Positions 19,571 to 53,589 of a DNA stretch of 64,000 nt are shown one piece after another. The translations under genes were made by a program, and so were the position numbers. Numbering within the stretch: the stretch's first letter is position 1; each line of letters opens with the position of its first letter. The stretch comes from Mobula hypostoma. Lineage: Eukaryota. The notes beneath the pieces were generated by a model that saw only the letters and a program-made list of their open reading frames with translations, was not told where the DNA came from and ran no database searches. The stretch spans positions 40,612,001-40,676,000 of the forward strand of contig NC_086108.1 of NCBI RefSeq assembly GCF_963921235.1, written 5' to 3'.

Positions 19571-21107
19571 AATTATATTTGTATATCTGTGCACATGTAA
19601 TGCTACTGTGACACTGTATATACATTTAGGATTAATAAATTCTCTATCTAATTAGTTAAATGGAGATCACCTGTGTGTAGCCACAGTGTTTCAATTGATT
19701 GTAGTAAAAATATACCTGTATCTGGAAGGTCCAACTGCTGGTGTGTCAGTATCCTGACGAAAACCACACTTCAAGCAACTCCGCAAAAAGGTTCTTGAAA
19801 AGCACAAGTCAGCAGATGGGTATGAGAAAGTTTCCAAGTCTTTGAATATCCCTTGGAATACAGTTAAGTCAATCATCAAGAAATGGAAAGAATATGCCTA
19901 GAACAGGCCGTCCTCAAAAACTGAATGACCATGCAAGACCGAGACTAGTGAGGAAAGCCATCACACAGCTCTGGAGGAGTTACAAGCTTCAGTGGCTGAG
20001 ATGGGAGAGACTGTGCATACAACAACCGTTACCAAGTGCTTCACCAGTCGCAGCTTTATGGGAGAGTGGCAAAGAGGAAGCCATTATTGAAAAAAACTCA
20101 CATGAAATCTTGGCTAGAGTTTGCCAGAAAGCATATGGGAGACTCTGAAGTCAGCTGGAAGAAGGTTCTATGGTCTGATGAAACCAAAATTGAGCTTTTT
20201 TCCCTTCAGATTAAATGCTACGTTTGGTGTAAGCCAAACACAGCACATCATCAAAAACGCACCACATCTACCGTGAAGCATGGTGGTGATTGCATTATGC
20301 TGTGGAGATGCTTCATTGCAGCAGACAGTGGAAGGCTTGTGAAGGTAGAGGATAAAATGAATACAGCAAGATACAGGAAATCCTAAAACCTAATGCAGCT
20401 TGCAAGGGAACTGCGACTTGGGAGAAGATTTGTTTTCCAGCAAGATAATGACCCCAAGCATAAAGCCAAAGCTCCATAGTAGTGGCTTAAAAACAACAAA
20501 GTTAATGTCCTGGAGTTGTTACGTAAAAGTCCAGACCTCAATCCAACTGAGAAGTTGTGCCTGGACTTGAAAAGAGCTGTTCTCTCATGATCCCTATGCA
20601 TTCTGACAGAGCTTGAGCAGTTTTGTAAAGAAGAATGGGGAAAAATTGCAGTGTCCAGATGTGCAAAGTTGATAGAGACCTATCCACACAGACCCAAGGC
20701 AGTAATTGATGCCAAAGGTACATCTACTAAATACTGACTTGAATGAGGTGAATACTTATGCAATAAATTATTTTCTTTTTTTATATTTGTAATTAATTTA
20801 GATCACTTTGTAATGATCCATTTTTACTTTGACTTGAAAGAGTCTGTTTCTGTTGATCAGTGTCAAAAAAAGACAAATTACATCCATTGTGGTTCAATGT
20901 TTTAAAACAATAAAACATGAAAACTTACAAGGGGTGTGAATACTTTTTATAGGCATTGTATGCGTCATTCATCAAGTCAGGTCTCTGATCGGTGTGATTT
21001 GATGACAGGGATAGAGCTAAGTTTTAAAAAAAAGAAAATGTTTTAGACTTTCTCTTGTTCAAGATGATTATAGCTGGCATTTATATGACAGTTGTCTAGC
21101 ACTAATC

Positions 21108-43003: not shown

Positions 43004-44511
43004 CAGTGCCTATAAAAAGTATTCACCCCCCCTCTCCCACCAGACATTTTAATGTTTTATTGTTTTACAACATTTTATCACAGTGGATTTAATTTGGCTT
43101 TTTTGATACTGATCAACAGAAAAAGACTCTTTTGTGTCAAAGTGAAAACAGATCTCGAACAAAGTGATCTAAATTAATTACACATATAAAACACAAAATA
43201 ATTGATTGCATAAGTAATCACCTCATTTAATATGACACACCAAATCATCACTGGTGCAGCCAACTGGTTTTAGAAGTCACATAATTAGTTAAATGGAAAT
43301 CTGTTTTTGGAAACGTGTGGGCAGTCGAGGCATTTCAATTGATTGTAGTAAAAATACACCTGTATCTGGAAGCTCCAACTGCTGGTGAGTCAGTATCCTG
43401 GCAAAAATTAGACTATGAACACAAAATAACACTCCAAGTCACTGAATATCCCTTGGAGTACGGTTAAGTCAATTATCAAGAAATGGAAAGAATATGGCAC
43501 CGCTGTAAATCTGCCTAGAGCAGGCCATCCTCAAAAACTGAGTGACCATGCAAGAAGGGGACTAGTGAGGGAGGCTACCAAGAGACCCATGACAACTCTG
43601 GAGGAGTTACAAGCTTCAATGGCTGAGATGGGAGAGGCTGTACATGCAATAATTGTTGCCTGGGTGCTTCACCAGTCGCAGCTTATGGGAGAGTGGCAAA
43701 GAGAAAGCCACTGTTGGAAAAAAAAAACTCACATGAAATCTCAGCTACAGTTTGCCAGAAGGCATGTGGGAGACTCTGAAGTCAGCTGGAAGAAGGTTCT
43801 ATGGTCTGATGAAACCAAAGTTGAGCTTTCTGGCCAACAGACTAAACACTATGTTAGATGTATGCCTAACACTGCACATCATCAAAAACACACCATCCCT
43901 ACTGTGAAGTATGGTGGTGGCTGTATCATGCTGTGGCATTGCTTCACTGTAGCAGGCCCCGGAAGACTAGTGGAAGGTAAAATTAATGCAGCAAAATAGA
44001 GGGAAATCCTGGAAGAAAACCTGATGCAGTCTGCAAGAGAACTGCGACTTGGGAGAAGATTTATTTTCCAAGTGTAAAGCCAAAGCTACATAGGAATGGC
44101 TAAAAAACAACAAAGTTTCAAGTCAAGTCCAGATCTCAATCCAATTGAGAACTTGTGGCCTTACTTGAAAAGGATTGTTCATGAGTGATCCCCATGCAAT
44201 CTGACAGAGCTTGAGCAGTTTTGTAAAGAAGAATGGGAAAAAATTGCAGTGTCCAGATGTGCAAAGCTGATAGAGATCTATCCACACAGACACAAGGCTG
44301 TAATTGCTGCCAAAGATGCATCTACTAAATACTGTCTTGAAGGGGGTGAGTACTTATGCAATAACTTTGGTGTTTTATATTTGAAATTAATTTAGATCAC
44401 TTTGTAGAGATTTATTTTCACTTTGACTTGAGAGTCTATTTTTGTTGATCAGTGTCAAAAAAGCCAAATTAGATCCACTATGATTCGGGTATTGTATTCT
44501 TATAGGCACTG
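43004..44511 (+). mobile_element. Tc1-family DNA transposon (copy 2), defective
   Basis: TA TSDs at 43002-3 and 44512-3. Termini cagtgcctataa / ttataggcactg. Transposase remnants KVLWSDETKVEL, VKYGGGCIMLW and SPDLNPIENLW with frameshifts and deletions. The right ITR is internally deleted. Confidence 0.95.
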
Positions 44512-46930: not shown

Positions 46931-47162
46931 AGGAAGCAAAAGAAATGTGATACTGTTTAGCTCATAGCTGTGAAATGAGTCAAAATGGTTAAATTGTTGA
47001 TTTTCTACATAATTATGTCTGTCTTCTCCACTCTGAAAAAGATCAGAATAATACATCTGAGAGTGGAGAGCGACCTTTTAAGCTGACCAACTTCCTTCCA
47101 TGCTCTCCACTCCTGCCAAATAAAATTATTTTGGAAATTCTGCAAGTTAAAATAAATGCATG

Positions 47163-47851
47163 TGTAAGGCGGTTTCGATTTTTATGCTTCTGCGGAGGCT
47201 AATTAAAATGGCGTCTTTGTTATGTTAATCTGGGGAATGCGGCTTTGTTGTGTTAAATACTGAGAAAGTTTGCGCTAACAGTTTGTTTTTGTTTTAGAGT
47301 CTGATAAGAGGGCACTATTAACCAATTGGGATAGTTGTTATGGTTTTGGTGTATTTGAAGATACTGTATGCGCGGGGTTTTGGGGCAGAAGGCGGGAGAG
47401 CGAGACAGAGGATGGACAAGGTGCTGTGAGTCCGCTAACGGGGTCAGACCCTGAGCGGGACGTTCAGTGAGGAGACGGAGACGGACTTGTGTCGAGCGTC
47501 TGGTCGACCACCGTTGTTGGTCCCAGGCAGCCGGTCGAAGTGGTCCGAGGGGTCGCAGGGTGAAGAAGAAGGTCCTTGAGCTCCAACGGTTTTGTGCACG
47601 AAGAGATTGAACTTTGATATATGTGGCGCCTTTTATTTTCCTTTTATATTTTATTCTTTTAATTATATAGTTCCAGTAATATCTATAAACTGTAAATCAT
47701 TTAATTGCATCTGGTGTATTGTGTTATTTGGGCAGGGTGGGGTACCTCACACAGCATCCACACAAACGAATTATCCAGTTTGGTGGGGCCGAGGCTGTTT
47801 CCCTAGATGACAGCGAGCCGAGCGACCCTGAGGGTGGCCGGGGGGGCTACA
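47163..47851 (+). repeat. 5' LTR
   Basis: tgtaaggcgg...ggggctaca; about 95-96% identical to the 3' LTR by manual comparison. Confidence 0.97.
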
Positions 47852-47854
47852 TTG

Positions 47855-47874
47855 TGTGAGGTTTGTCCGGGATT
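47855..47874 (+). promoter_or_regulatory. Degenerate primer-binding site (tRNA-Pro type)
   Basis: tgtgaggtttgtccgggatt versus canonical PBS-Pro tgggggctcgtccgggatt, immediately after the 5' LTR. Confidence 0.65.
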
Positions 47875-48099
47875 GAGTCTGCTGGTATGCTGTGTGGGTG
47901 CCCTGTTTAAATCTATAATGTGTGTCTCTGTGGGTTATTTGCTGGTGATTGCTGTATGCGTGGTGGGTGAGGTCTTTGTTCGAGTTCAGGGTGGCATTGA
48001 CAAGTTGGAGGTGGCACTCGGAGCTGCCCAAGCGGTTGGGAGAGAGAGGAAAGAGTGGTCTGATTTGGAGGTAGGGTCTGCGAATAAATGTTCTAGCTC

Positions 48100-48440
48100 T
48101 GGCAGGCTCCGCCTGGCACTTGGGATAGTGTCCACCCCACGTGTGAGACGTGGGCAGAGCGGATCACTCAGTTGTTAGATGAGTGGCAGTGCTCGGTTGA
48201 GGGAGAGCGACAGGAATTGGTTGAAAGTTTGAGTAGGCGGGCTGGTGACGGTATTAGAGCTGTCAGGTTCACTTACACCGTAGTGACAGCTGTCAGTTAT
48301 TTGAAAGAGGGGGGGAAAGTTTTCAGTGTGTCTTCTCTGGCGAGGAGGGCGGCTAAATTGCTTGCAGTGCCGGGGGATCATTTCAGGGGATCAGTTGTTC
48401 AGCTGATCAGAGAGGTGTTGGGAAACTTAGTGGACGGCCA
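48100..48440 (+). pseudogene. gag: PNMA-like Gypsy gag (capsid) remnant, frameshifted
   Basis: RLRLALGIVSTP, then in a shifted frame CETWAERITQLLDEWQCSVEGERQELVESLSRRAGDGIRAVR. Resembles the RLRxFSG..PTP.GEE.FE.W.EQ...LDEWQCS....Q...ESL.G.A pattern of PNMA-like Gag. Confidence 0.8.
48420..48426 (+). promoter_or_regulatory. -1 ribosomal frameshift slippery heptamer G GGA AAC
   Basis: The gag frame reads TTG GGA AAC. A -1 shift gives GGG AAA CTT AGT GGA CGG CCA GTG..., which is open into the pol ORF at 48441. Confidence 0.8.
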
Positions 48441-49300
48441 GTGGGGGAATGGCTTGGGTTCTCTGGGGAAGCACATTCCCAGCAATGTACCAATGAACTT
48501 CCGAAAGGAAAAGACCCGATTCCTAAAGGCTTAGAGGGGCTACGCCCCAGGGTGTCACTATGGATAGAGGAAAGCGATGCTAAAGCTATCCTCGACCCCG
48601 GGGCACAGATCAAGTTGTTGGACAGTTCGTTTTACAACCGGTGTCTGAAGCATTTATCCTTGACAACTGCAAGGGCACCGGAGACTTTGGGTACTAGTGG
48701 CAGTAGTTATCCAGAAGACTATGATTGGTTAATGACCCTGGAGTTCATGGAGGCATTTTCTGGGCACCCAGCGTGTCGAGTTGCTTCTGAGCACGTGTGT
48801 AGCAGCCTTGAGCCAGTACCGAATTTAAACGAGACCCAGCGGTGGTACGGCCTGGGGAAAGTAGCTGAGGGTGAGACCCTCTTAGTAGATGCTCCGAACT
48901 ACCACGAGGGAGGGGAGTTGACCGCTGAAGACACCTCAGTGAGAGAGAGGTCGCGGCAACTGGACCCTGGCGGCATGGAAGATGGAGGCAGCGTGTGTGC
49001 GGATTATGTGATGTGGTTTAATGTGCTGCATCTGAGGGGTGGATGTTGCCAGATCCTGAGGAGTGCGGCTGTTGAGCTGAAGATGGCCTTTACTAGTTCC
49101 CTAGGATTCTTCCGATCCGAAAAGATACCCAAGGGCATATCCAGAGCCCCTGCATCCTTCCCGCGGGGCATGAGGAAAACCATGGGGGAAATGAAGGAGT
49201 GTGGAGTTTTGACGTATGTGGATGACCGCCTAGAGCTTGGATTCGCCTGGGGGGACTATGAGGCGAGGCAAGTGGCTGAGCCCGGGCGACTGAAGCGAAG
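48441..49300 (+). pseudogene. pol: Gypsy pol remnant: aspartic protease (LDPGAQ) and deleted RT (YVDD)
   Basis: AILDPGAQIKLL at about 48585-48620 (DTG changed to DPG). CADY..WFNVLHLRGG..KMAF..LGFF..IPKGISRAPASF...LTYVDD (YVDD at 49215-49226). The first RT catalytic Asp is replaced by His. Confidence 0.9.
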
Positions 49301-49334
49301 TGTCAAATGTGGAGGAGTTTTTGGCCGGAGGTGT

Positions 49335-50036
49335 TTGGTGCAATGTGAGGAAAATGACCCGACATACCAGTTGAACTTCCTGGTGTTGGGACAGACGGTG
49401 GTGGACTGGGGCATGGAAACCCAGGTCGTCAATCTGAATGAGACACAGGGAAGAGAGGGGATTTGCACCGCACTGCGGTCATGTACTGATGAATTAATCC
49501 AGCGAGAAGAAACAATGACCCACCTTGGAAGGGATCAGCAGAAACTCAAGACGTCCATTCAGAACAGATTGTAAGACTTGCAAGTTGGAGAAGATCATGG
49601 AAGTGTTCTGACTAAGGTCAACAGAAAACCAAGAGCACAGGGAGGGGAGTTTGACTACACTCCCGAGGAGGTAAAGAAATGGAGGACAGATCTCGGAAAG
49701 GGGAGGCGGACGCTTGAAAGGAACCTGAAGATGACTATCGCGAGTTTAAATGAAGTGGAAAAACTGAACGTTGACCTGGAAGACGTCCTCAGGAAGAAAC
49801 AACCGGAGGCTGAACATTCTTTAACTGCTGCTTTTCAGGTCAGGGTGGAAGAAGCTGGTGGGGTAACTGCGTCCCAGATTGAGATGGCCAGGAACCCTGA
49901 GTCAGAACTGCGGAGGCTGTGGCGAGAGTTGAAGGAGTCCCCGAAGAAGCTGACGTCTCGACTGCAGGAGGCTGAAGGGGTAGCCCCGGCTAAATGTTTC
50001 AGTTTGGAGAAACTCAAACAGCAGCTACCGATCGAT
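49335..50036 (+). pseudogene. Captured, processed, internally deleted sarcomeric myosin heavy chain rod fragment (MYH16-like) in the pol frame
   Basis: L*DLQVGED..VLTK (cf. LDDLQAEEDKVNxLTK); [29 protein letters not shown] (cf. recalled MYH16 DLKMTIDNLNEMERSKLDLEEVVKKR); [15 protein letters not shown] (cf. RLEEAGGATSxQIEM); [11 protein letters not shown]...AKCFSLEK (cf. KKLAQRLQEAE...AKCSSLEK). Confidence 0.9.
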
Positions 50037-50525
50037 GGAATGAGGAAGGATACGGATTCGAAGGATGATGTGCTGCACATGTGGAACATGCTGCCTTTCG
50101 CTAACTTCCCCGTGACTGAGGAAGAGACTTTTGGCCCTTCTCCCACTGAGTCAGGTGTAGCGGGGAGAGCTAGCTGTGGGCAGTCTGAGTTGCGGCAGGA
50201 TTGGGAAGGAGGAGAGGCGGGGCCCCGGACACTGGACTGGGGGGGTCCGAGCTGTAGTGGTGGCCTGAGTGGGAGAGGAGTTGGCAAGCAGGCCCGAGGT
50301 ATCCCTAGTAGTGTCTGAGCCTTTTGGGTTTAGGTGAGGGGGTACGGAGGTCTCAGAGGGTTAAGAAGCTCCCAGATAGGTTGGCCTATTTAGCGCCTGT
50401 GGGACGGGAGTAAGGTCCACTGTTTGGGGAGCACTGTCACTGTGTGTATCTGTGTATGTGTGTGTTGTGTGTCTGTAGGACTGGGTGGCGAGTTATTTAG
50501 GAGTCATGAGGACATGACTTTATTT

Positions 50526-50538
50526 GGTGGGGGGAGAG
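50526..50538 (+). promoter_or_regulatory. Polypurine tract
   Basis: ggtggggggagag immediately upstream of the 3' LTR. Confidence 0.85.
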
Positions 50539-51233
50539 TGTAAGGGGGTTTCGATTTTTATGTTACTGCAGAAGCTAATTAAAATGGCGTCTTCGTTATG
50601 TTAATCTGGGGAATGCGGCTTTGTTGTGTTAAACACCGAGAAAGTTTGCGCATAAAACAGTTTGTTTTTGCTTTAGAGTCTGATAAGGGGGTGCTATTAA
50701 CCAATTGGGATAGTTGTTATGGTTTTGGTGTATTTGAAGATACTGTATGCGCGGGGTTTTGGGGCAGAAGGCGGGAGAGCGAGGCAGAGGATGGACGAGG
50801 TGCTGTAAGTCCGCTAACGGGGTCGGACCCCGAGCGGGACGTTCGGTGAGGAGACGGAGATGGACTCGTGTGAAGCGTCTGGTCGACCACCGTTGTTGGT
50901 CCCAGGCAGCCGGTCGAGGTGGTCCGAGGGGTCGCAGGGTGAAGAAGAAGGTCCTTGAGCTCCAACGGTTTTGTGCACGAAGAGATTGAACTTTGATATA
51001 TGTGGCGCCTTTTATTTTCCTTTTATATTTTATTCTCTTTTAATTATATAGTTCCAGTAATATCTATAAACTGTAAATCATTTAATTGCATCTGGTGTAT
51101 TGTGTTATTTGGGCAGGGTGGGGTACCTCACACAGCATCCACACAAACGAATTATCCAGTTTGGCGGGGCCGAGGCTGTTTCCCTAGACGACAGCGAGCC
51201 GAGCGACCCTGAGGGTGGCCAGTGGGGGCTACA
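50539..51233 (+). repeat. 3' LTR
   Basis: tgtaaggggg...ggggctaca followed by TSD catg. Confidence 0.97.
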
Positions 51234-53589
51234 CATGTAAAATAGTCAAAAAATAATTACACCAAGAGATGGCACACTGAACTGGAAGAATACTGCCCAT
51301 AAAAAGCCTGTACATTAACTATCCTGTTCAACACTGAGGAAATGTGGAGAAAATTTTCATCAATAATCTTTAAGTGGTAGAAATCATCCAACTTATTCTC
51401 AGGGAATGGCACTGTAATGGAATTAGAAAGAGGTGTGCTGACCAATTTTGAGAAGGAACATAACTTCAAAGTACAAAGAATTATTTTTTGACTGGAGTCA
51501 TTTCTCAAGTGGATTAGCTGTCCATCATTAATTGAACCCCAGGCTCTCTCACTTTGCAGCAGCCTGCTTCCTTTGATCTGAGAGATTAAACTAATTGCAA
51601 CTGTAAAATGTTGCAGAGTGCTTGCAATGCTTGAACATGGAAATCTGTATTGAAATTAATCCTGTCAAGATGCATGATAAAACTGGAACAAACTCAAACT
51701 GCAGATCGAGACAGCAATTGGACCTACTAATTGAGTATCATTGAAATGATGCAACCATCCAACTTTGTGTCACAATATTTTCTTTGTAACATAATGCTGA
51801 CTTTCTCACAGATGAAAAGCTACCTATCAAGTAGTGCAAATCTAAGATTTGATGTTGTACTTCATTCTGGTGACATTGATTCATCTTCTAAAAGTGTTTT
51901 ACATGTTATTCAGTTTGTTTCAACAGAAAAGACTGCTTCTCACAATAATATTTTTTTTAAATCAAAGCAGTTGTGATAAATAAAGGTATTCTGCAAAATG
52001 AAACTATAATCCTACTCATTATAAGGGATTTTGGTTCAGTAAGTTAAATGTTCCACGTTGCTTTTGAAATTCTCTGGATGTTTCTTTTCCAATCATCGTA
52101 AACAGAACGATCGTAACAACTTAAATGTGATATGCTTTCATCCTCTACTGTGAAGTAACACAGTGCCAGACTCCATGTTTACTCAGGAAAGGGGGAGTAA
52201 TCTAAGTCCCGGATGTCACCTTCACTGTAAAATATGAACTCAGCTACCACCATGTGCACCTTTGACTTGTAAATTTCTGTGCTGCATCAAGGATATACTA
52301 GCTGAGTGCAGGTTTCAAAAATCACATAAGAGTTGAAAATTGCATTAGTCAGCATTACTTTTGAATAATTTGGTTCAGCATTCTAATTGCACATTTACTG
52401 GTTTATGATTAGAAATACAAATCTACCTATGTATAACTCAACAGCAGCAAGCTGGCAAAATGAGAGAGCTTTCCTTTAAAGATGTACACTCTTTCCTAAA
52501 TCCCAACCTCCCAAAGTTATTGCACAACACTACAGGAATGAACTGCTCTTCCAAGTCCCACGCTGACTGCCCTTATGGGCATGATGAAAGCATTTATTCC
52601 TGCCAACTGTATCAAGCCTTAGGGTTGTGCCCACAGAGGGACAGGATGCTGGTTTAAAGCTGTTCAAACCTTCTTTCAGGCAACAGAGGGATTATGCCAA
52701 CTCACAAGATAAATTTGTTTCCAGAAAATGGTAAACCTCCACATCCCTGTTGAAATGCTATTGGGTTGGCATACCCAGAGCTGTAACTTGTTTTTTTTTA
52801 AACATGTTAATCTTGAAAGCCAATACAATGAAATGTTAAATTCACCCCACCATGCTATGAGGGGAACATTGGACCCTGGCAGATTAGTTGGTGCAGTAAG
52901 CCTGTTTCATTATTCAATAATACCATGGCTAATACGTTATTTAATCCAGGTATTCACTATGTCTACATTATCACTGATTGAAAATCTATAAAATTCAGAG
53001 ATAAAACGAGCAAATGCCCTGGCATTATCTGCCATCCACAGAAGAGATTTGTAAACCTCTCTCTCTCTCTGGTATTCATTCCTCCCATCACTCCTGAAAA
53101 GCAGCTCCCAATTAATAGACATTTGCACTACTCCTAAATATCTCAACCGGCAGAAATATTTTTTTCTCTTTCTTCCCTCATATTATAATAAAAATCAATT
53201 AGATCTCCCCCCCCCCCAGCTACTAAACTGCAGCAAATAGCTTGTGAAATTGCAAAATTTAACTTTTGCGAGTGTTGGTATTATTCTATTAAATCTCTGA
53301 GGTAGTGCAGGATAGAATAATGTATCCTTAAGGTCTGATGCCCAGAACTGGTCTCAGAAGTCCTTTACATCTGTTGCACATTAAAGACAATTCTTTAATT
53401 TCAAGTTATTCATTATTACAGCCATATTTTCTAACATTTGCACATCCGGTACTTTTTTTTTTGCTCTTGACATTTCAAATGGAGTAAGTTCTTCCTAGGA
53501 TATCAAATTAAAAGAGGTCAAATATTTATTTCTTTCTATCATAGGAAGCTAGTTCAACAATTAAGTCTACGTCAACTCACTGAACACTG

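Follow-up and report, generated by a model that had tools for sequence, protein, structure and literature searches.

Non-autonomous LTR elements are usually assumed to need only the cis signals in their ends. The locus described here raises the question of whether such an element can also depend on being translated, and on what its translation would be for. In the window, the whole 64,000-nucleotide stretch of DNA that was analysed, one reading frame passes through remnants of a protease, a reverse transcriptase (RT) and a myosin rod, and the initial annotation proposed that it may be a selected fusion protein or, more cautiously, that its progenitor had been constrained to stay open. We find that the openness of the frame was kept, with exceptions, and that the protein sequence was not. 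The copy in the window is a dead, non-autonomous Ty3/gypsy LTR element (47163-51233, forward strand) in which integrase has been replaced by a spliced host myosin rod. We posit, giving the idea slightly less than an even chance, that this vertebrate LTR parasite followed a rule of defective RNA viruses: frameshifting ribosomes would have to reach the 3′ end of the RNA for a helper to copy it, and the frames would have remained open while the element went through some thirty deletions, one frameshift with its compensation and the uptake of myosin.

Anatomy of the element

The element lies between two copies of a 4-bp target-site duplication (47159-47162 and 51234-51237) and is bounded by a 5′ LTR of 689 nt (47163-47851) and a 3′ LTR (50539-51233), both of the TG...CA form and 96.1% identical to each other; an exact 4-bp duplication was found in 17/33 and 4/18 of the copies with both LTRs located. 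A primer-binding-site (PBS)-like stretch (47852-47875), which we take to be of the tRNA-Pro type, follows the 5′ LTR and is common to integrase-bearing relatives, and a polypurine tract (PPT; 50529-50538) precedes the 3′ LTR. The 2.7-kb interior is fully assigned to gag, pol remnants, myosin and a tail, all on the forward strand. No Pfam env family occurs among the proteins of five relatives, and ARAGORN found no tRNA gene within the 64-kb window.

A shortened gag frame (47918-48534) retains a remnant of the PNMA domain upstream of pol (Pfam, E 5.6e-6) and has lost its zinc knuckles. Its ATG at 47918 is present in 62/69 copies, and its stop lies 37 codons past a GGGAAAC slippery heptamer (48420-48426, in the gag/pol overlap) in 45 of the 61 examined copies of the window subfamily, which corresponds to 48532 in the window; the gag of the window copy is disrupted by indels near 48140, 48308 and 48372. 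The heptamer is also present in 5/6 integrase-bearing relatives, and from this motif we infer that pol is probably entered in this clade by -1 frameshifting; among 16 sequences scanned for a stimulatory RNA hairpin past the heptamer, none stands out (z -1.2 to +0.7). A single fused gag-pol ORF was rejected as the state of the family, given that 41/58 copies have the gag frame, 9 are fused and 8 have neither.

Within gag, a 75-nt deletion leaves a G-run at 48302-48316 with a second slippery-type heptamer, GGGAAAG, which is in gag phase in 33/58 and 15/23 copies. The same G-run is the upstream limit of the open pol frame in 52/58 and 18/23 copies, and length changes there bring the front of gag into pol phase in 9/58.

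The pol frame begins with a protease remnant (48441-48764; active-site triad DPG at 48594), followed by a protease-RT linker that has lost 159, 1, 24 and 35 nt (48765-48990), an RT remnant behind losses of 99 and 78 nt (48993-49300; LHL at 49026, YVDD at 49215), and a connection/RNase H remnant flanked by losses of 204 and 276 nt (49301-49412). The captured, intronless myosin rod comes next (49413-50025; internal losses of 120, 27, 21+105, 624 and 9 nt) and is joined in frame to the pol C-terminal tail (50046-50318). Protease, RT and RNase H remnants thus stand in canonical order, with integrase absent; RT is matched faintly in Pfam, and comparison with the PDB gave matches to RT and to a sarcomeric myosin rod. 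The protease, RT and myosin pieces that the initial annotation had read from the letters are real, and RNase H remnants can be added to them.

Its two ORFs do share one frame, stop-free over 48357-49571 and 49575-50315 and split by a lone TAA (49572-49574); the GTG at 48441 and the TTG at 49578, with which they seem to begin, are no true initiation codons, and the frame is that of pol, behind a separate gag. The TAA stands, as had been noted, at a former acidic residue, and because this codon is an acidic sense codon in 63/66 other copies and the same stop in 3, the break in the window copy is not a family trait. A frameshift near 50239 extends the frame of the window copy to 50318, the last 25 codons being peculiar to it; 42/64 copies end at 50266.

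A family multiplied as a unit

A DNA search of the 3.48-Gb genome returned 1653 candidates, a search with the protease 2947, and one with a segment absent from the window copy 448, all three being counts of search candidates and not of copies. Only the best-scoring matches were retrieved, and among the first 66 a long frame was the reason for choosing 17; the frequencies given here are therefore biased toward the window subfamily. Duplicates (L104, L105, L115) and copies with large insertions (L100, L099) were excluded from the analyses of private indels, dN/dS, tree and stop linkage; an apparent additional myosin block of 870 nt in L099 proved to be an unrelated nested insertion. The same deleted structure is found at many loci, each with its own LTR pair and flanks, and thus multiplied as a unit, with a median LTR-pair identity of 96.0% (n=33) in the window subfamily and 93.7% (n=18) in its sister. 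Contigs from four runs, possibly of RNA, cover all 30 element bins, which speaks neither for nor against expression. Contigs from runs X14 and X20 (organism A) and X15 and X16 (organism B) span the whole element and carry the family beyond one species label; one of the two organisms may be the source species.

PNMA-type Ty3/gypsy relatives (L171-L180) share with the myosin family the PNMA domain of Gag, the slippery heptamer, the protease-RT-RNase H order, the pol tail, the PBS-like stretch and the TG...CA ends, with 64-88% nucleotide identity in matched blocks; unlike them, the myosin family lacks integrase and zinc knuckles, has its enzymes deleted or inactivated and carries myosin in the place of integrase. 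The integrase-bearing relatives have a gag with PNMA domain and zinc knuckles and a pol with RT, RNase H, integrase and the C-terminal tail (the RT-RNase H-integrase order was found by Pfam in one of them). The shared PBS-like stretch and LTR blocks, together with a similar LTR age (LTR identity of 92-98%, against the median of 96% in the window subfamily), make these relatives candidates for the helper. One relative (L179, C1:254.31-254.32 Mb) has neither myosin nor integrase; its RNase H continues in frame into the pol tail, and it looks like the pre-capture type.

Two further observations concern individual sequences. In the integrase-bearing relatives L171, L174 and L176 the pol tail holds an in-frame tandem repeat of 42 nt, which is expanded beyond 2 kb in L174; and a nested element on the opposite strand (L169:303-4351), whose open frames measure 1006 and 348 codons, lies inside a myosin-bearing copy.

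Capture of a myosin mRNA

The donor of the rod is a gene at C68:14.525-14.707 Mb, presumably MYH16-like. Nine of its exons, which occupy 182 kb of the chromosome sequence, follow one another without a gap in the oldest copies of the element at 85-97% identity, and the eight that were checked have AG/GT ends. The rod in the window is 81% identical to the donor in nucleotides and 67% in amino acids over 191 codons. One donor exon matches Myosin_tail_1; it shares its length of 82 codons with a gene on C36 (61% identity) and is 54% identical to the fast-type cluster. That cluster (C68:15.3-15.9 Mb) was considered as donor and dropped once the much closer gene was found, and the figures based on it (dN/dS of 0.81 and 13.8 expected stops), inflated by paralog distance, are superseded by the true-donor values. 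The skip of well over 100 residues noticed in the rod corresponds to 624 nt (208 codons) as measured against a paralogous myosin coding sequence, the exons of the true donor having been partly located there. As to the gene itself, its introns are very long, its large rod exon is split in three, and the first of its matched exons has diverged strongly.

Myosin sits between the RNase H linker and the pol tail, in place of integrase and in frame at both ends, and in older myosin-bearing subfamilies the rod occupies the same site, again with the pol frame at both ends. Short homologies can be read by eye at both switch points. Compared across subfamilies, the copies show a capture by two template switches at such homologies, followed by serial deletions. 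Element copies may pass for myosin genes: a search with one myosin exon gave 139 matches, mostly weak and scattered, and 18 of the 20 retrieved were element-related. Seven other loci (L066-L072; C18:48.7 Mb, C50:30.69 Mb, C184, C21, C22, C12 and C9) hold long, stop-ridden, intronless myosin-tail matches, presumably of non-muscle type and unlike the element, which may stem from another capture with many copies or be processed pseudogenes.

No stop was fixed in the pol frame

Stops gained by the window subfamily relative to the donor and older copies were counted in the pol frame and in the other five frames. None was fixed in 498 codons of the pol frame, against 33 in 2384 triplets of the other frames (6.9 expected, P 0.001). 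The gag frame likewise has 0/148 against 6/690, which is P 0.28 by itself, and for pol and gag together the count is 0/646 against 39/3074 (8.2 expected, P 0.0003). For pol alone P is 0.015; myosin alone, with 0/192 against 12/910, is not significant (P 0.08). The sister subfamily has nearly equal stop counts, but most of its history is held in common with the window subfamily.

One stop qualifies this picture. A TGA at 48561, 27 nt past the normal gag stop, is the sole common stop in pol: it is present in 14/61 copies, far more than at other Trp codons, is linked to neighbouring variants (0/100 permutations gave as strong a linkage) and is scattered on a weak tree. Its origin as a CpG hot spot was rejected, as 14/14 are TGA at the Trp codon and are linked to their neighbours. 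The haplotype indicates that sources whose pol frame was stopped early still gave rise to copies. The second base of the slippery heptamer is changed from G to A in 18/58 copies; a scenario in which the TGA is tolerated only where the slippery site has been lost is unsupported, the association being non-significant (P 0.19).

Deletions that keep the frame

On the path to the window subfamily the pol frame lost 624, 276, 204, 159, 120, 105, 99, 78, 27, 24, 21 and 9 nt, all multiples of three, and gag lost six blocks of 18, 36, 45, 27, 75 and 12 nt, likewise all multiples of three; the sole out-of-frame long loss of pol on this path is one of 35 nt. Deletion events were counted manually from the distances between anchors, and a junction of 66 or 67 nt that two copies have in common was excluded. 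On the path, 18/19 shared deletions of at least 9 nt are in frame, against 12/23 private ones (Fisher P 0.005). Side lineages add seven in-frame deletions and sets of two copies add three out of frame (11, 11 and 14 nt), which brings the comparison to 25/29 against 12/23 (Fisher P 0.013). These junctions are shared ancestral events and did not arise independently in each copy.

The chance rate deserves equal care. The initial annotation had assumed that random deletions keep the frame one time in three, which is too low: private deletions are in frame in 12/23 cases and short homologies raise the chance rate, so that it lies nearer one half. A short-homology null gives an in-frame share of 46-69% in myosin DNA and of 38-54% in pol, and homologies are visible at the 624-, 105-, 21-, 9- and 276-nt junctions. 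The 18/19 in frame has P 7e-5 at a null of 0.52 and 0.01 at a null of 0.7, and the 25/29 has 1e-4 and 0.04, respectively. The lack of a fixed stop and the 18/19 long deletions in frame on the subfamily path support the claim that the progenitor was constrained to an open frame.

The most telling detail for frame keeping is a compensated pair. Of 112 private indel events, 62 are of 1-2 nt; the lineage has one such, a 1-nt loss that puts ~15 codons (about 48811-48860) into the wrong frame, and the 35-nt loss begins just ahead of the first stop in that wrong frame and restores the pol frame. The proposal that the frame is kept across deletions and junctions holds for the other long deletions on this path and for both ends of the capture, and fails for these two losses, which compensate each other. 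A second compensating pair is common to two other copies, L150 and L159, in which one nucleotide of the pol frame is lost and another gained at a distance of 170 nt.

There are exceptions. Frameshifts are shared within three sets of two copies with different flanks (11+11 nt, 14 nt and 1 nt); segmental duplication was rejected as their origin, since flanks differ in all seven pairs compared. Together, the stop haplotype and the shared frameshifts place the constraint on long-lived lineages and not on each round of copying.

Neutral decay and the fate of the protein

After insertion, copies decay neutrally. The 49 unselected copies average 1.9 stops each and only 1/49 is unbroken over 48441-50230; in the first copy set 1/29 indels is a multiple of three. 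Private (post-insertion) dN/dS is 0.83 and 0.98, and post-insertion stops have accumulated at 0.022 per stop site, against 0.026 for synonymous changes, which is the neutral rate.

Between element lineages, dN/dS is 1.02 for the window versus the oldest subfamily (186 codons) and 0.24 for the oldest subfamily versus the integrase-bearing relatives. Against the donor it is 0.70-0.87 (146-160 codons), a ratio lowered by the inclusion of synonymous change on the donor side. The rod differs from the donor at 59/191 residues, five of them changed to Pro and five to Gly, and different subfamilies have deleted different parts of it. The degenerate catalytic motifs seen in the window copy are family-wide and not private to it: the protease triad is DPG in 45/62 copies of the subfamily (older subfamilies most often have DTG, in 8/22), and the first RT aspartate has become His (LHL) in 53/62. 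Only two hints of protein constraint emerge, namely the retention of YVDD in 59/62 copies and a dN/dS of 0.33-0.44 in one side subfamily (44-55 codons). On the lineage to the window subfamily, fixed stops are thus absent from the 498 pol codons, and purifying selection on the protein was not found, the dN/dS ratios being 0.7-1.0.

Why the frame was kept

We consider it an even bet that the RNA depended on translation in cis as far as its 3′ part, likely for escape from decay, with the protein product irrelevant. Escape from decay is favoured because it would call for a pol frame that is open almost as far as the 3′ LTR, whatever protein is encoded, and because the one common stop lies only 27 nt past the normal gag stop. 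Ribosomes would read gag, and a minority would slip into pol at GGGAAAC, run for ~1.8 kb and end at a stop ~270 nt ahead of the 3′ LTR; translation of pol would shield the long region (~2 kb) past the gag stop from nonsense-mediated decay, and the RNA would be copied by the helper element. Sources with an early pol stop or a frameshift would leave fewer descendant lineages, and myosin would be a neutral filler, tolerated because it was captured in frame. The constraint would be quantitative, in that short-lived sources with broken frames still made copies. Low-level frameshifting or readthrough is able to inhibit nonsense-mediated decay (PMC7566565; PMC5360307), and coronavirus defective RNAs require a long ORF even when its product is a junk protein (PMC8255065).

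The same frame statistics would be produced if translation in cis served packaging, a nascent Gag or Gag-Pol remnant or the ribosome bringing its own RNA to the helper particle, and the gag frame and PNMA-domain remnant are retained, while the PBS-like stretch, PPT and LTR ends are common to the integrase-bearing relatives; we nonetheless regard packaging as unlikely, because the zinc knuckles are lost, gag has lost six more blocks and the openness of distal 3′ pol, which few ribosomes reach, is poorly explained by it. Of the three reasons that the initial annotation had offered for an open frame, escape from decay and translation-coupled packaging survive the comparisons made here. Somewhat less credible again is the absence of any selection, with template switches at codon-aligned homologies keeping the frame and the missing fixed stops due to luck in a few masters. 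The private in-frame share of 12/23, the homology null of 0.46-0.69 in myosin, the homologies visible at junctions, the spread of the stop haplotype and of slippery-site loss, and the P of 0.08 for myosin only all speak for it; yet homology cannot remove stops that arise by point mutation (none against 6.9 expected), the null in pol is only 0.38-0.54, and the small frameshifts to be expected from the 62/112 private indels of 1-2 nt are missing from the lineage but for the compensated one.

The third of those reasons, a protease-RT-myosin fusion that would serve the element as a coiled coil, riding on helper particles or poisoning them, has the poorest prospects. It could draw on a donor dN/dS slightly below 1, on the low ratio in the side subfamily and on the retained YVDD. 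The near-neutral dN/dS between lineages, the lost catalytic residues, the rod prolines and the 15 codons in the wrong frame nevertheless make a useful fusion protein unlikely, as do the Gly gains, the differing rod deletions among subfamilies and the existence of an in-frame relative without myosin; the selected fusion protein of the initial annotation is not supported.

Relation to known systems

Capture of mRNA by LTR elements is already known. As described by Tan et al. (2016, PMC5131818), LTR-mediated retrocopies of animals carry an intronless, sense-strand piece of mRNA in place of part of the internal ORF; the myosin element resembles them in the short homologies at its switch points, in its non-autonomous further rounds and in the often in-frame arrangement. 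Unlike these young, low-copy retrocopies, it has more than 1,600 candidates, several deletion subfamilies and ~19% divergence from its donor, and its deficit of fixed stops is measurable even though the protein is under no constraint. Maize Bs1, as treated in the same source (PMC5131818), likewise has pieces of spliced host genes in a chimeric LTR-element ORF that was retroposed again; it is described there as present in one to five copies, with sequence from three donors, and is considered as a gene, whereas the myosin element has one donor, a vertebrate host, very many copies and no sign that its product matters. The defective interfering RNAs of mouse hepatitis virus, as described in PMC8255065, share with the element a helper-dependent, deleted genome in which an open frame is favoured whatever it encodes; they concern an RNA virus and were shown experimentally, and in the case of our integrated retroelement the pattern is deduced from a fossil series. 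A literature search outside most subscription journals returned no paper on this family.

Should the family indeed have depended on remaining translatable, an open frame in mobile DNA would not by itself demonstrate a useful protein. Surveillance of mRNA would then shape which retrotransposon parasites and captured host exons spread, and in-frame capture, the first step to chimeric genes, would be selected for free. Since early stops are present in some of the many natural copies and absent from others, RNA data would suffice to test the decay hypothesis.

The window also holds two copies of a DNA transposon, at 43040-44490 and 19670-20960, which we take to be Tc1-like; they are 81-88% alike and have inverted ends, and the copy at 43040-44490 contains a transposase-like frame (43430-43999).
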